Assembly (NCBI GenBank): GCA_963682125.1
Contig: OY821640.1
Location: forward strand, 1,833,669-1,897,668
Reading direction: 5' to 3'
Length of the DNA: 64,000 nt
DNA from: Methyloprofundus sp.
Lineage (GTDB): Bacteria; Pseudomonadota; Gammaproteobacteria; Methylococcales; Methylomonadaceae
Both the position numbers and the translations under genes were made by a program. The notes beneath the pieces were generated by a model, which did no database searches, was not told the DNA's origin, and saw only the letters and a list, made by a program, of their open reading frames with translations. Positions 8,344 through 55,344 of the stretch are shown here, piece by piece; the stretch's first letter is position 1, and every line of letters begins with the position of its first letter.

Positions 8344-8984
8344 ATGGCTTTATTTGATGGCTTACAACGACAATTACGCTCTGTTATTGATAGGCGCGCC
8401 ACCACGTGGCTCGCCTAAAGATTTTGGGACTCCTGTCGCAAAAATCAATTCGCCACGCGGCGAATCAATAATGCCCCGATACGCCCTGCGTTCGGATCAA
8501 CTACGCACAAAAGCTGCTTCGTTAATCCTACCTCAAATGGCTCTACGGCTCTCCGGGATAAAATTTTTACCTCCTGAGCGAACTTACAGTTCACTTCAGA
8601 TTGGTAAATTTCCCTTCGCCTATCGCGGACTAAAAATCACCCCTGATTTTCAGCGGATGAAGATACTCTAAGGCACATTAATCGTATTTCTGATTTAATT
8701 GCCGAGTCTCATGCAGCTAAAGCTGTCGGTTTAGACTATGCAAAAATACAGCAATTGGAAGCCATGCGTGAAGCAGCTAGAAATGAAGGTGGCGGTGCAG
8801 GGCTTGGGTCAATTAATGGCTCAATCAATTAACTCTCCTACGCCGCCCCCAACCACAGCAACTAAACAATCCAGTGATGACTTAATGGCAAAACTTATCC
8901 AGCTAAAAAAAATGTTTGCTGCCGGAGCTGATTACCGAACAAGAGTACGCAGCTAAAAAACAAAGCATTTTGGACAAAATGTAA
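8344..8984 (+). pseudogene. SPFH-domain/SHOCT protein remnant (central part lost, frameshifts)
   Basis: ATG 8344 gives MALFDGLQRQLRSVI, then the repeat 8391-8655, then DEDTLRHINRISDL..QQLEAMREAARNEGGGAG. A frameshifted SHOCT-like end follows: DDLMAKL.QLKKMF..G/LITEQEYAAKKQSILDKM*. Confidence 0.65.
8391..8655 (+). mobile_element. Diverged copy of the 283-bp TIR-less element (family R)
   Basis: Starts TAGGCGCGCC and ends CCCTGATTTTCAGCG like the copies at 20837, 38853 and 50346; shares internal blocks CAACTACGCA, CTGCTTCGTTAA, CTACCTCAAATG, CAGTTCACTTC. Confidence 0.8.
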
Positions 8985-20836: not shown

Positions 20837-21119
20837 TAGGCGCGCCATTCCTACTTCATGAAACATTGGGATGTCCTATCGCTAATCTTCATTCAGCACA
20901 GAGCGATTTATGGGGGCCCCAGTTCGTCCTGCGTCCAACTCAACTACGCAAAAAACACTGCTTCGTTAAGTCTACCTCAAATGACTTGACGGCTGTCGGG
21001 ATAACTACTTGCCTCCCGAGCGAACTGACCAGTTCACTTCGGATTGGCGAATTTCCCTGTCGCCTACTGCTGACTAAAAATCATCACTTCGCTACGCTCC
21101 GTTTCCCTGATTTTCAGCG
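20837..21119 (+). mobile_element. 283-bp TIR-less element (family R)
   Basis: TAGGCGCGCC...CCCTGATTTTCAGCG, near-identical to 38853-39134 and 50346-50628. Confidence 0.9.
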
Positions 21120-21304
21120 ATAGAGCTTTAAGAATGATATTCATTTTTCAGCCTATAAAAGCTCTTTGTAATTAATTAGTTACGCTTAACTTACTGGCAT
21201 TGGGGATTACCCCTACGATGACAACTCACATCTTAGAATAATTAGACCTTATTACTTATGCCTAACATCAGTAATTAACTTAATCAAAAACCCCTCACCT
21301 AAGC

Positions 21305-36130: not shown

Positions 36131-37135
36131 CTAATCATTGCTTAAATTTTTTATTTGCTGACTTGCTGCAATAAAAGCCCCCAAAACACCGAGCAATGTA
36201 GATAGCATAATAAATAAAATCGTTTCATTTAAAGCCATAAAACGTAATTGATACTCACTATGATAGAGTGCCAGCAATTGCTCCACAGGAGACTCTAACA
36301 ACAATACAATACTAGTAACAATAAGCCACGCTAAAATACCTGCAAGACTTCCATACCAAAAACCTGTGTACAAAAATGGTCGATAAATATAAGCATTACT
36401 CGCACCCACTAGCTTTTCTATCATAATTTCATCGCGCCGTGTCTGTAGCTCAAGCCGAATACTATTGCCCGTTATCAAAATGACCGCAATAATTAACAAT
36501 ACAGTAACCGCACGAATAAAATTACGCGCTATTTGCATCATGGCTTGCAACCTTGAAACCCACTGCATATCCATTTGCGCAAATTCAACGGCAGAATGAG
36601 CTTCTAACATTTTAAGCCATGATGAAAAATCATTATTCATCGCTATTTCAGCCACAGGAAAAACCTGTATTACTCGTGGTAGTGGGTTGTGTGTTAAAGC
36701 ATTTAAAGCGCCACCAAAGCCACTGTACGCTTGAAACTCATCCAATGCCTGCTGCTTTGAAATGTAGTGAACTTTATCAATTTGGGCTTTATTTTTTAAT
36801 TGTCCCGCTAAAAGCATTGCCTCTTCATCTGTCACATGATCATGTAAGAATAACGAAATCTGTCGCCCCATTTGCACATCATCAAAAACTTGCTGACTAT
36901 TATTCAATATGACATAAAACCCGCCAGCTAATGACATGGCGATGGCAATAACAAGTATCGTCATTGCTGATGAAGCAGGCGTTTTCCATAATCGTTTGGC
37001 ACTACTAAATAAAGCAAAATAATGCGTCATCAAGATAGTAAATAAAATCCCCTTCCGCTCTCTTAATACTTTCGGGGGTTTACTCAATGCTTCACGATGA
37101 TGCCGCTTTATTTTATGTTTTTTAGAGGGTCTCAT
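36131..37135 (-). CDS. ftsX: Cell division permease FtsX
   Basis: Four TM segments, periplasmic domain NPLP, KLVGA...I.RPFLY.G. Confidence 0.9.
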   Translation of the reverse strand: MRPSKKHKIKRHHREALSKPPKVLRERKGILFTILMTHYFALFSSAKRLWKTPASSAMTILVIAIAMSLAGGFYVILNNSQQVFDDVQMGRQISLFLHDHVTDEEAMLLAGQLKNKAQIDKVHYISKQQALDEFQAYSGFGGALNALTHNPLPRVIQVFPVAEIAMNNDFSSWLKMLEAHSAVEFAQMDMQWVSRLQAMMQIARNFIRAVTVLLIIAVILITGNSIRLELQTRRDEIMIEKLVGASNAYIYRPFLYTGFWYGSLAGILAWLIVTSIVLLLESPVEQLLALYHSEYQLRFMALNETILFIMLSTLLGVLGAFIAASQQIKNLSND

Positions 37136-37796
37136 AGGCCTCTTTCAACATCCGCCCATGATTTAATTGCAATACTTTATGTTTTGTCTGTGCAACAATC
37201 CCAGCCTCATGAGTTGCGATCAATATACTCACACCAACCTGTTGAAATTGCTCAAATAAATTCATAATTTCAATGGATAGTTCAGGGGTTAAATTTCCCG
37301 TTGGTTCATCAGCCAAAATTAAAGCTGGTTTATTAACAACGGCTCTGGCGATTCCAACTCGTTGCTGCTCTCCACCTGATAAGGCTAATGGATATTTTTT
37401 TTCCTTTCCTAACAAGCCTACTTTATCAAGTGCCGCACGCACGAGCCTTGCAAGATCATAATGCCCAACCCCAGAAACCAATAAAGGCAAAGCAACATTG
37501 TCAAACACTGTTCGGTCAGCCAACAACTTATAATCTTGAAATATTAAACCCATTTTTCTACGCAAAGCAGGAATATCTCCTTCTCGTAAACGACATAAGT
37601 TCTGTCCATCAAAGAGCATCTGACCTCTTGAACAGCGCTCCATAAGAGCAACCAACCTTAATACTGTACTTTTTCCTGCACCTGAATGCCCTGTTAAAAA
37701 GGCAATTTCACATTTATTTAAATGAAAACTCACATCAATCAACGCATTATTCGCTGTATAACGTTTGAAGACATGATTATACCCAAACGAAATCAA
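37122..37796 (-). CDS. ftsE: Cell division ATP-binding protein FtsE (5' end supplied by IS630 terminus)
   Basis: GHSGAGKST, LSGGEQQRVGIARA, LADEPTGNL; TTG start at 37796 lies in the IS630 TIR; native ATG is stranded at 39141. Confidence 0.85.
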   Translation of the reverse strand: MISFGYNHVFKRYTANNALIDVSFHLNKCEIAFLTGHSGAGKSTVLRLVALMERCSRGQMLFDGQNLCRLREGDIPALRRKMGLIFQDYKLLADRTVFDNVALPLLVSGVGHYDLARLVRAALDKVGLLGKEKKYPLALSGGEQQRVGIARAVVNKPALILADEPTGNLTPELSIEIMNLFEQFQQVGVSILIATHEAGIVAQTKHKVLQLNHGRMLKEAYETL

Positions 37797-38846
37797 GATG
37801 CAGAGCTTAACACCTGAAAATTATCGTTAATTCTTTCGTTTAAAGAGTCGGCAATACTAGGTAATGTCCGATCAAAAAAATGATTTATTTGATGTCGAAA
37901 TTCCTTAGCCGTTGCAAAATATTTATTATTCCGTGCGTGTTCATTCATGACCTTCCAGAGTCGTTCTATCGGATTTAAATTAGGACTGTAAGGTGGTAAA
38001 TAATGGAGTTTAATATTTAATTCTTTTGCTTTTTCAACCACAACGCTCCATCGAGCACAATATTTATGCAGTGACTTGATGCGTATTGAGCCTTTATTTT
38101 TTCAAAAAAATCAATAATAGACTCACCATTGACGGTTTTATATTGATGGGGGACCGCTTCAGATAAAAAGCCCAATCGAATGGCTCCGATGATATTTAAT
38201 CGAGTTCGACTGCCTGTTGTTTCAATGACTTTATCAACGCCTGTTTTAATCCAGCCAGAGGTGACTTTTGTGGCTTGTGTTGGAGGGACTGCATCAATGA
38301 ACAAGAGTGGTTCATCACACGCCAGAGAAGCCTTTAGCGCTTCGTATTCACGTATAAATTCAGCTTGCTTCTCAGCGTTAAACTTATGAGGTACACCTTT
38401 AGGTTGCTTATAGCTAAACCCCTGTTGGTGAAGCCATTTATTCATCCCTGAAAGACTATATTGAATAGCATAGACGGACAGAACATAAGCAACAATTTGA
38501 TGGGTATGAACGTCAGTAATTTCAGATAAATGTTGAATCAATTTTTCTGTCTGGTCAGCCTTTAAAAGGCTTTGTGAGCCCCCATTTTCAGGGGCTAACT
38601 AAAGTCCATCAGATGACGCGAAATGGTAGAGTCATGTTTTCTTAAAGCTTGGGCAATTTGTGTGATTGACCAGCCTTCTGAGCTGAGTAATATGGCTTTA
38701 ATTCGATCGCACTCATGTACATCACGGACTTTATTATGCCGCAATTCTAATGCCTTTTTTTGTTCGGAGGTGAGTGTGATTTTCATATTTTGTATAGCTT
38801 GACTTGATTTTTCTCATTTATCAAGCATCTTCAATGATTTTGGGTA
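37780..38846 (-). mobile_element. IS630-family insertion sequence (frameshifted transposase)
   Basis: Fragments 38595-38786 (HTH), 38017-38541 (FIDAV, SRTRLNIIGA) and 37793-38041 (LPPYSPNLNPIERLW); TA duplicated at both ends; termini TATACCCAA..AAGATGC. Confidence 0.9.
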
Positions 38847-38852
38847 TAAAAC

Positions 38853-39134
38853 TAGGCGCGCCATTCCTACTTCATGAAACATTGGGATGTCCTATCGCCA
38901 ATCTTCATTCAGCACGGAGCGATTTATGGGAGCCCCAGTTCGTCCTGCGTCCAACTCAACTACGCAAAAAATACTGCTTCGTTAAGTCTACCTCAAATGA
39001 CTTGACGGCTGTCGGGATAACTACTTGCCTCCCGAGCGAACTGACCAGTTCACTTCGGATTGGCGAATTTCCCTGTCGCCTACTGCGGACTAAAAATCAT
39101 CACTTCGCAAGCTCCGTTTCCCTGATTTTCAGCG
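38853..39134 (+). mobile_element. 283-bp TIR-less element (family R; 282 bp here)
   Basis: Inserted within codon 3 of ftsE with no duplicated bases. Confidence 0.9.
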
Positions 39135-39146
39135 TCAGCATAAGCC

Positions 39147-41069
39147 TTACTTTTCATCTTCCATAAAAAGTGCATCAACAAAATTTTCAGCATTGAAATC
39201 CTGTAAATCATTAATACCTTCGCCCACACCCAAAAACCGAATTGGAATACCCTGTTGTTTTGCAAGTGCAAAAATAATGCCACCTTTTGCTGTGCCGTCT
39301 AACTTAGTTAATGCAATTCCAGTTAAGTTAACGGCTTTATTAAAATGCTCTGCTTGAGAAAGTGCATTTTGCCCAGTCCCCGCATCCAATACCAATAAGA
39401 CCTCATGAGGTGCCGTTTCATCGAGGCGAGATATAATGCGCTTAACTTTCTTTAACTCTTCCATTAAGTGAGATTTTGTATGCAGCCTTCCTGCCGTATC
39501 GGCAATCAATACATCAACACCTTTAGCCTTAGCTGATTCTACTCCATCAAAAATAACTGAAGCTGAATCCGCTCCTGTATGCTGAGCAACAACATGTATA
39601 TTATTTCGCTCACCCCAAACTTGTAATTGCTCGACTGCCGCAGCTCTAAAAGTATCGCCAGCAGCAAGCATTACGCTATGCCCTTCACGCTGCAACCTTT
39701 GGGCTAATTTGCCAATTGTTGTCGTTTTACCGACCCCATTAACACCAACAACCAAAATAACAAAAGGGCCTTCTTGTTCAGGAATCACTAAAGGCTGATT
39801 AACTGGCTTTAAAATTTCTAATAATTGTCCTTTTAATAAACCTTCTAGTGCCGCCGCATCCTGTAATTGGTGTTTTTCTACATCTTCTTCAATTTTAGCA
39901 ATAATTTCAGTTGTTACATTCAAACCAACATCAGCCACCAATAAACTTGTTTCGATTTCTTCAAGTAGATCTTCATCAATACTTCTATTGCTTAAAGACA
40001 GGCCAGATAAAACGGCTCCAAAACCACTGCGAGTTTTCCCTAGTTGTGATTTTAGCCGCCCATACAATGACTCTAAAGGTTCAGCTTCAGAAATCGGCTG
40101 TATTTTAGCGTCTATTTCTACTACGCTAGTTTCCTCAAGACTAATTTCTTCCTCGTCCTGAGTAAAAGCAGCATAACGCGTATAAAAATGAATCAGCAAC
40201 AACACTATCATTAGCAAGATAGCAATAACACTATGCGCAGAAAGCAACCAAATAGGCAGTGCAAGTTTTACAGCCGCAACCCCAGTTGCAACCAACAGCA
40301 AGAGCAAAAAACTTCCCGTAGTCGCTATCCAGCGAACTCGTTTAACTTTATGCTGAGTAACTGAAAGTAGTACCCAAGTTAATGTTAAAAAATTAACCAC
40401 CGCAAAAAGCCTATGCACCCAATTAACAGCAACTTTTGCATTAAAAGAGAGCGGTGATAAAAGATCAAAGAAATAACGGTAATCAGCTACCGGCCACCAA
40501 GAACCATTACATTGAGGGAATCCAGAACAAACTAGCCCTGCATGATTTGCAGTTAACCAAGCCCCGACAATTAGCTGGCAAGTTAAAAGTGCCATCGCAA
40601 TTTGTAAAAAATAAGACTTAGTTTGGTTTTTTATTTTTTCATAATTAAGCTGGCTTCTTACTAGCAAATAAATAGCAATACCAACGATTAAGCCATTGAT
40701 TATATATTGGGTAAAATAAGCCAATGCCTGACTAGGCAAAATCGTGACATTAATGGCTAAGTAAATCTGTACAGAAATTAGGGGCAGTAATGCAAATGAG
40801 GCAACAGTAAGCTTAGTACGATTTTTAGCTAGAAAAAGGCTTAAAATTATCACCCCTACAATGATTAAGCTCATAAAAATGAGACTTGAATAATAAATAA
40901 TACTTGCCGTCGCAATATCTGCTATTCCAAAATCAACAACTTGCGTATAATACGCTATTAAACTATGACAACTTTGTTGATCAAGCCCCCCCAAAGACCA
41001 TTGATATAAATTTGCTGTTATTGCCAGCAAACCTAAAAAACTTAAAATAAATGTAAACAACCTAAACAT
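39147..41069 (-). CDS. ftsY: COX15/CtaA-like membrane domain fused to SRP receptor FtsY
   Basis: C-terminal NG domain (GVNGVGKTTT, DTFRAAA, DTAGR, TKLDGTAKGG). The N-terminal ~300 aa have ~8 TM segments with QLIVGAWL..N.AGLVC..FPQCNG, NWVHR and AHS; no internal stop. Confidence 0.9.
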   Translation of the reverse strand: MFRLFTFILSFLGLLAITANLYQWSLGGLDQQSCHSLIAYYTQVVDFGIADIATASIIYYSSLIFMSLIIVGVIILSLFLAKNRTKLTVASFALLPLISVQIYLAINVTILPSQALAYFTQYIINGLIVGIAIYLLVRSQLNYEKIKNQTKSYFLQIAMALLTCQLIVGAWLTANHAGLVCSGFPQCNGSWWPVADYRYFFDLLSPLSFNAKVAVNWVHRLFAVVNFLTLTWVLLSVTQHKVKRVRWIATTGSFLLLLLVATGVAAVKLALPIWLLSAHSVIAILLMIVLLLIHFYTRYAAFTQDEEEISLEETSVVEIDAKIQPISEAEPLESLYGRLKSQLGKTRSGFGAVLSGLSLSNRSIDEDLLEEIETSLLVADVGLNVTTEIIAKIEEDVEKHQLQDAAALEGLLKGQLLEILKPVNQPLVIPEQEGPFVILVVGVNGVGKTTTIGKLAQRLQREGHSVMLAAGDTFRAAAVEQLQVWGERNNIHVVAQHTGADSASVIFDGVESAKAKGVDVLIADTAGRLHTKSHLMEELKKVKRIISRLDETAPHEVLLVLDAGTGQNALSQAEHFNKAVNLTGIALTKLDGTAKGGIIFALAKQQGIPIRFLGVGEGINDLQDFNAENFVDALFMEDEK

Positions 41070-50345: not shown

Positions 50346-50628
50346 TAGGCGCGCCATTCCTACTTCATGAAACATTGGGATGTCCTATCGCCAATCTTCA
50401 TTCAGCACGGAGCGATTTATGGGAGCCCCAGTTCGTCCTGCGTCCAACTCAACTACGCAAAAAACACTGCTTCGTTAAGTCTACCTCAAATGACTTGACG
50501 GCTGTCGGGATAACTACTTGCCTCCCGAGAGAACTGACCAGTTCACTTCGGATTGGCGAATTTCCCTGTCGCCTACTGCGGACTAAAAATCATCACTTCG
50601 CTGCGCTCCGTTTCCCTGATTTTCAGCG
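50346..50628 (+). mobile_element. 283-bp TIR-less element (family R)
   Basis: Near-identical to 20837-21119; lies 32 bp upstream of the antitoxin start. Confidence 0.9.
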
Positions 50629-55220: not shown

Positions 55221-55344
55221 TTTTAAGCGGTATCATCACTAAAAATCAGGGATGATTTCAGCGATGGTCGAATGGGGGGAAAGTGCTATTATTCATTCCC
55301 CCTATGAAAACGTCATTCCTTCATGCTTTTAGAAGGAATCTATC

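Follow-up and report, generated by a model that had tools for sequence, protein, structure and literature searches.

The question raised by this stretch of DNA is what moves a sequence of about 283 bp that carries no gene, recurs in near-identical form, and has neither inverted repeats at its ends nor duplicated bases at its flanks. The stretch analyzed (the window) comprises 64,000 nucleotides, C1:1833669-1897668, of a closed genome of 2.68 Mb with 38% G+C. The original prediction described three near-identical copies and one diverged copy that all end in TAGGCGCGCC...CCCTGATTTTCAGCG; we verified these exact ends in the window, where the right-end 15-mer has four exact matches against 0.06 expected by chance (Table 1).

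Table 1. Features of the element in the window (window positions; ^ marks a cut or insertion point, here and in the text)
Feature	Position	Strand	Remarks
Subfamily A copy, 283 bp	20837..21119	- (working strand)	Inside an IS4-type element; 20 paralogous empty sites; working strand 5'-CGCTGAAAATCA...GGCGCGCCTA-3'
Subfamily A copy, 282 bp	38853..39134	-	Between the ftsY stop and the ftsE start
Subfamily A copy, 283 bp	50346..50628	-	
Subfamily B copy, 265 bp	8391..8655	-	~79% identity to A; terminal-hairpin loop 20 nt shorter
Target tetranucleotide beside the hairpin end	21120..21123	-	Minus strand C-T-A-T^ before CGCTG; invariant -4 C is plus-strand G at 21123; equivalent G's at 8659, 39138, and 50632
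Terminal hairpin, helix 1	21073..21118	-	11 bp, two G-T/G-U pairs, plus a small inner stem; starts at nucleotide 2
Working-strand 3' end, GGCGCGCCTA^	20837..20846	-	C at -4 of the cut here too
Conserved central segment, minus GTCAAGTCAT^TTGAGGTAG	20972..20990	-	IS110 site, unoccupied in this copy
Terminal-hairpin solo remnant (ACTAAAAATCAGGGATGATTTCAGCG)	55238..55263	-	Then ATGG, G at +4

Across the whole genome, blastn recovered 165 element loci, which together account for 1.5% of its length; 111 are full length (full and partial copies were also put at ~130), with 94 belonging to subfamily A and 17 to subfamily B, and copies are 96 to 98% identical within a subfamily. BLAST searches placed the element in 24 of the 25 genomes of the genus at 73 to 87% identity and with conserved length. 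We also found a second, more abundant family (family C) and intermediates, which have the hairpin and the architecture in common and differ in the remaining sequence; the elements of all families are gene-less and 265 to 330 nt long. A covariance model of the 61-nt terminal-hairpin module matched 105 of 301 Methylococcales genomes in 30 of 63 genera, mostly of one family, and one relative (G002) holds more than 1,000 candidate copies. Public records sharing a 22-nt piece of the element came from methanotrophic symbionts in the gills of Bathymodiolus mussels and from related Methylococcales, and the element was found only in this order. Copies also sit on contigs of a Dormibacteraeota MAG (L131) and a Cellulophaga MAG (L137) and in bins of a thiotrophic and a Cycloclasticus symbiont (L101 and L129); these are most likely mis-binned Methylococcales contigs, and the element could act as a contamination marker.

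The family had not been recognized when the window was first read, and it matches no Rfam family: scans of the window at the gathering threshold and of the element at an E value of ≤10 returned only tRNA elsewhere and two chance-level matches. A literature search likewise yielded no described repeat in these symbionts and no topoisomerase-dependent element. Truncation at the end opposite the hairpin is frequent among the copies, and there are still shorter derivatives: a 55-nt mini-element joining 36 nt from the hairpin end to 19 nt from the opposite one, a perfect fold-back that consists of the hairpin end only, solo hairpins, and, in another genome, a mini-element of ~105 nt. These forms were seen at C1:1823921-1823975, C1:1453615-1453660, and C1:2051442-2051487 of this genome, in L121, and as the remnant in the window. 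The mini-derivatives (55 and ~105 nt) retain only the hairpin end and ~20 to 30 nt of the opposite end and, with the solo forms, outline the minimal cis requirements.

We next looked at the insertion sites. Both flanks of each copy were joined and then searched against the genome, so that an uninterrupted match would represent an empty site. This gave eight clean paralogous empty sites within other repeated IS elements of the same genome, with nothing duplicated or lost (for example, AGCTT^TAAGAATG, matched in 20 paralogues). Another 37 exact empty sites came from loci of the B. japonicus and B. platifrons symbionts and from other genomes, and these also fixed the left boundary of the element families concerned. 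Insertion is thus exact and free of duplication at ~45 sites in total, which bears out the prediction of a non-autonomous mobile element that lacks terminal inverted repeats and makes no target site duplication; neither of the findings named beforehand as refuting it, a match to a described family or a duplication at empty sites, turned up. The copies are not flanked by a shared dinucleotide, which bears on an IS607-type (serine recombinase) crossover without deciding it. These results show that the element is real, abundant, undescribed, gene-less, and mobile.

Two empty sites had been rebuilt from the window itself. The one in the IS4-type element proved right, since 20 uninterrupted paralogous IS copies read GCATT^AAAGAGC with no duplication, one base differing beside the junction (AAAG when empty, ATAG when filled). 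The ftsE site was borne out only in part: the element does lie directly after the ftsY stop (39147), but the body of ftsE (37122-37796) lies beyond an additional IS630-like insertion. The start of ftsE (window 37122-39149) has two insertions, the 283-bp element at 38853-39134 and the IS630-like one with its ORFs at 37793-38541; the residual ftsE ORF begins at a TTG (37796), and both ftsY and ftsX seem intact. We also observed that two of the eight clean filled/empty pairs of this genome differ by one base at the junction from all their paralogues (-2 C>T at C1:72081 and +2 A>T at window 21119-21123, the copy at C1:1854505), with 160-nt flanks otherwise identical. No such change occurs in the 37 sites from other species, and the two differences may reflect the chemistry of insertion or may be due to chance.

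A feature of the sites that the original prediction had overlooked is that the fourth base 3' of the right end, in the orientation of the window, is G in 108 of 111 copies. The empty sites also contain this N-N-N-G, which is therefore part of the target. Single-sequence DNA folding neither separated the two strands of the element nor convincingly beat shuffled sequences. We therefore based the strand call on comparative evidence. Consensus folding of diverse copies gave ~-52 to -59 kcal/mol for the reverse complement and -22 for the strand as first read, and by this evidence the strand opposite to the one first read is the working strand.

The consensus fold was built on 20 sequences from many species (73 to 100% identical) and has 62 pairs in 15 helices. 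Fifteen pairs changed on both sides, compared to 2 to 6 in controls in which the partners were slid, and the corresponding numbers of cells with both sides changed were 64 and 3 to 8. Paired cells made up 97.6% of the total, against 34 to 45% with the partners slid and 84.7% on the complementary strand; the last value is lower because 166 of the 1,230 cells are G-T/G-U pairs. The fold extends from nucleotide 2 to the last few nucleotides of the working strand. Its first helix, the subterminal hairpin already noted as kept in both subfamilies, was confirmed, and no other module is as well conserved across the superfamily: the stem is swapped on both sides between families (AAAATCA/TGATTTT, AAAATCT/AGATTTT, and TCAGCCC/GGGCTGA), and the hairpin foot CGCTG...TAGTC is constant between them. 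A long-range helix pairs GGCG with the CGCC of the terminal GGCGCGCC (bases 20839-20842 with 21061-21064 in the consensus fold) and brings the 3' end beside the 5' hairpin. Tandem G-A mismatches and invariant G-U pairs also occur in the fold. Among the internal stems proposed earlier, GAACTG/CAGTTC is supported by covariation, while TCGCCAATC/GATTGGCGA and TCGGGA/TCCCGA fall outside the conserved fold. As to the guide-like RNA suggested in the original prediction, the fold lies on the strand opposite to that first read, spans the whole element, and may be one of single-stranded DNA and not of RNA. Even on a conservative reading, the element represents a structured superfamily not described before.

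On the working strand, the layout of an inserted copy is C-N-N-N^CGCTGAAAATCA....GGCGCGCCTA^, with a target C at position -4 of the insertion point. This C is present at 108 of 111 copies in this genome and at 92 of 95 sites in other species (97% in two independent sets), at all 29 copies truncated at the far end, at all 30 loci from other genera, and at all mini and solo forms. The element's own 3' end keeps a C at -4 in every family as well (CCTA, CCTG, CCAG, CTAG, and CTAA, and in family C, CCGA, CCGC, and CCAA), so that both cuts obey the C(-4) rule. Both site sets further favor T at -5, T/A at -2, T at -1 (where G is almost never found), T/A at +1, and a T-rich stretch downstream, giving a full target logo of T-C-N-T-T^W. 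Compared with the context of all genomic C's, the preferences for T at -5 (P = 3 × 10−7) and for T and not G at -1 (P = 6.5 × 10−7) were significant.

We then evaluated orientation with respect to replication and to genes. GC skew located the replication origin at ~0.4 Mb and the terminus at ~1.7 Mb, and of the 111 full-length copies, 76 have the working strand as the lagging-strand template (P = 1.2 × 10−4). With respect to ORFs running across the rejoined sites, the copies are oriented at random (35 sense and 28 antisense), and the interrupted ORFs, of up to 1,116 codons, are disrupted in both directions. The element is therefore not an intron, and its insertions disrupt genes; a group I or group II intron was rejected on these counts and on Rfam scans that returned no intron family.

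Taken together, the site rule, the strand bias, and the fold suggest to us a single-strand transposon moved in trans, with the host topoisomerase I (TopA) as the leading candidate catalyst, a role that we assign to it tentatively and at something short of even confidence. At replication forks, the element would be mobilized as a folded single strand of DNA, in two strand transfers formally equivalent to those of IS200/IS605: the strand would be cut after the C-N-N-N of the left flank and after the C-C-T-A of the right end and then joined, and the same cut-and-join would be repeated between the joined ends and a new C-N-N-N site. If TopA acts in this way, the junction between the element's ends would read ...GCGCCTA-CGCTGAAAATC.... 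The catalyst, supplied in trans, would carry out two strand transfers of the 5'-phosphotyrosine type and would be TopA, the only type IA topoisomerase of the host, while the role of the fold would be to hold both ends together and to leave only one strand competent. The element would then be selfish DNA with no genes and no transposase, whose folded strand offers two C-N-N-N^ sites and which the essential TopA may move to TopA sites at forks, an account that we likewise hold with less than even confidence.

The enzymology bears on this proposal at several points. Bacterial and archaeal topoisomerase I cut single-stranded DNA 4 nt 3' of a C, which a dedicated pocket reads, the preference being set by R169 in the E. 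coli enzyme (PMC3467081), and the enzyme forms a 5'-phosphotyrosine link (PMC7587558). A genome-wide cleavage map in E. coli gave an AT-rich asymmetric TCNTTA/T motif, with cleavage at its TA step, 4 nt beyond the C (PMC9352719). This in vivo motif agrees at every position with the insertion logo of both site sets, T-C-N-T-T^W. Topoisomerase I sites thus resemble those of the element in the C 4 nt 5' of the cut, the T-C-N-T-T^A/T sequence, the AT-rich single-stranded context, and a compatible 5'-phosphotyrosine chemistry; they differ in that the enzyme is known only to reseal the break that it made. TopA would be the most likely catalyst because the C(-4), AT-rich T-C-N-T-T^A/T preference is the selectivity of topoisomerase I and because no transposase tracks the element. 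Since its chemistry has the same polarity as that of the IS200/IS605 transposases, it would give exactly the products observed.

The gene itself is present: topA (L228:417-2735, C1:139416-141734) encodes the sole type IA topoisomerase in this genome, where we found no second one, and also in the copy-rich relative G002. The equivalent of E. coli R169 is kept (an R169A enzyme of E. coli prefers A at -4), and those of R173 and Y177 are Tyr and Phe. We considered whether this variant tracks the element, but the RRALDYLVGF form occurs in 295 of 301 Methylococcales genomes, so that the Tyr/Phe form is order-wide and uninformative. Single-strand folds that direct recombination have precedents in integron attC sites and the attP of CTX phage, where the fold of one strand is likewise needed, mismatches disable the other strand, and nothing is duplicated. 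Those systems use tyrosine recombinases (IntI and XerCD) at attI and dif, whereas the present element inserts almost anywhere and with the logo of a type IA topoisomerase.

Several points weigh against TopA. We know of no topoisomerase-driven transposition and of no mobile element that uses topoisomerase I, and the proposal would need two coordinated cleavages and an exchange of ends. The enzyme is universal, whereas the element is found only in Methylococcales. The fold pairs the cut site at the element's own 3' end, which is GC-rich, and the 5' cut is followed by C and not by A/T. The many invariant G-U-type pairs would suit RNA better than DNA, and the search for another enzyme spanned a handful of protein families. 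Type IA enzymes, moreover, grip both cut ends and so prevent their release (PMC7587558).

A possible but doubtful alternative is a dedicated transposase acting in trans by the same strand-transfer scheme, either a divergent HUH/Y1 enzyme or one of a new family, single-copy in Methylococcales as RAYT is for REPINs and reading a C at -4 by chance. It would explain why the element is confined to one order when TopA is universal, and its long vertical persistence in species-specific subfamilies resembles that of REPIN-RAYT systems. The 5'-phosphotyrosine chemistry is also that of HUH enzymes, whose elements are likewise duplication-free and lagging-strand-biased; both properties are established for IS608. 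The breadth of our protein search, six families, also leaves room for such an enzyme. Each candidate that we considered, however, fell away, and if a dedicated enzyme were at work, the agreement with the topoisomerase I motif at five positions would be a coincidence. Known HUH transposases also read four or five target bases via DNA guides and not one base.

The original prediction had named HUH systems (IS200/IS605 or IS91) or IS110 as the likely movers and had suggested that longer elements with the same ends and an enzyme gene be sought. In our search for an autonomous version, which covered a distance scan of the end motifs, short end-only fragments, low-copy genomes, and 30 loci from other genera, we read ~190 loci. 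All were ORF-less elements of 265 to 330 nt or fragments cut by other IS; none was a longer element carrying an enzyme gene between the same ends, and no gene recurrently adjoins the element. None of the proposed systems found support, as the ends are unrelated, TnpA is missing from several copy-rich genomes, TnpB and Y2 are absent from this genome, and IS110 is a guest.

In its general behavior, the element is close to the IS200/IS605-derived PATEs, which also have no inverted repeats or duplications, strand-specific hairpin ends, a target motif kept 5' of one end and mimicked by the element's 3' end, and a bias to the lagging-strand template. IS200 was rejected as parent or mobilizer nonetheless. 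Its ~30 copies in this genome have unrelated ends, with hairpins (CCCCCAGC-TCT-GCTGGGGG and CCTCCGGC-TTT-GCCGGAGG) 18 and 9 nt from the IS200 ends in the classic geometry, and no IS200/IS605 element shares the ends of the present one. IS200-type TnpA is absent from three genomes with many near-identical copies (G015, G018, and G024; best Y1 E value, 1e-13 to 1e-16). TnpB is lacking too, as PF07282 had no match in this genome, and the omega-RNA/HEARO-type Rfam families did not match the element at an E value of ≤10. Unlike in IS200/IS605, the hairpin lies 1 nt and not ~10 to 20 nt from the cut, only a single base of the target is fixed (C at -4, 97%) in place of a specific tetra- or pentanucleotide, and a 15-helix fold spans the whole element.

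REPINs mobilized by RAYT offer the parallel of gene-less repeats in tens to more than 1,000 copies, clade-wide, with species-specific subfamilies and presumably a single-copy enzyme in trans, but the present element has no doublet of inverted REP hairpins of 20 to 40 nt. Two classic RAYT genes (at C1:958529 and C1:2450099) are flanked by REP-like hairpins of their own and were rejected as movers on this ground. RAYT genes (NF047646) were located at C1:958420-959136, C1:954017-954708, and C1:2450046-2450760, each with its own inverted hairpins (GGAGT-AAATAGCTTTAGCTATT... and GTGCGTAAAACGCACCCTAC...); they form separate REPIN-like systems of low copy number. The only widespread RAYT-like protein, of 258 to 283 aa (the 258-aa type), also failed as mover in the co-occurrence test, being absent from four complete genomes with 6 to 18 or more copies (G136, G078, G104, and G042) and common in families without the element. 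IS91/ISCR elements and Helitrons are similar in having a constant hairpin end that abuts a short target motif, with the hairpin subterminal, a variable other end, and no duplication. They differ in their target (GTTC/CTTG or AT and not C-N-N-N), and the present element is of 0.3 kb and gene-less in every genome examined, while this genome has no Y2 HUH gene (PF04986, no match at an E value of ≤0.1).

We judge it improbable that the fold is instead that of a minus-strand transcript, a ribozyme or protein-binding RNA that spread through an RNA intermediate (by reverse transcription or by reverse splicing into DNA), or that the copies are dispersed genes for functional small RNAs. Fifteen helices with tandem G-A mismatches and invariant G-U pairs are what one typically sees in a structured RNA, and known transposase-binding ends are far less elaborate; the genome also encodes an intact reverse transcriptase of a group II intron, and copies lacking the end opposite the hairpin are common. 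These truncations, however, take the 3' end of the putative RNA, whereas target-primed reverse transcription would take the 5' end. The fold fills the element from nucleotide 2 to its last bases, so that neither a promoter nor a terminator would fit, orientation is random with respect to genes and biased with respect to replication, long ORFs are disrupted in both directions, and no ribozyme or intron family of Rfam matched even at an E value of ≤10. A second reverse transcriptase gene (C1:2328095-2328967, retron- or defense-type by its motifs) is broken by a subfamily A copy. Neither reverse transcriptase gene is linked to the element, and both were rejected as movers.

It is very unlikely that the element is a deletion derivative of an IS110-family element (a MITE) moved by the RNA-guided DEDD recombinase of the latter. 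IS110-family elements similarly lack inverted repeats and duplications and often target repeats, and an IS110-family gene (323 to 328 aa; NF033542, 198 bits) does lie within several copies of the element, splitting them into two halves. This IS110 element has other ends of its own (..CCTATGCTTATAG....CACAGTTCAT), inserts always at one fixed site in the conserved center of the element, GTCAAG(T/C)CAT^TTGAGGTAG (that is, GTCAAG(T/C)CAT^TTGAGG), and has a sister subtype with the same right end at unrelated targets elsewhere. IS110 targets are specific and at least 11 nt long, whereas the present element needs one C, and the ~10 copies of IS110 compare with 165 element loci. IS110 was thus rejected as the mobilizer: the repeat serves it as a landing pad, not as cargo. 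The IS110 element is ~1.2 kb long (C1:1532608-1534101, C1:2579416-2581147, and C1:1972475-1973600), and ~10 copies of the repeat are truncated exactly at its site. By ORF clustering, the IS load of the genome is very heavy, with two DDE families of ~100 copies each, ~40 ISL3-like, ~35 IS630-like, ~29 IS200, 17 of another DDE type, and 10 plus 5 of IS110 type. The large number of interrupted genes fits what genome decay in a symbiont would lead one to expect.

Finally, that the sequence is not mobile at all, its copies having arisen by recombination or segmental duplication or having been kept by the host as a REP-like regulatory repeat, can practically be dismissed: some loci are indeed rearranged, nested, or truncated beside other IS, but 45 exact filled/empty pairs within otherwise identical IS copies, unrelated flanks, disrupted long ORFs, and the higher identity within the genome than between species, which points to separate recent bursts, all stand against it.

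If TopA does move the element, it would provide the first case of a type IA topoisomerase driving a mobile element, and mobile DNA would need no transposase at all. A universal enzyme would then have a latent recombinase activity of relevance to genome instability, and the element would provide a minimal, protein-free cargo design for single-strand DNA insertion. For the symbiont, the element disrupts many genes in the course of genome decay and serves as a landing pad for an RNA-guided IS110 element.
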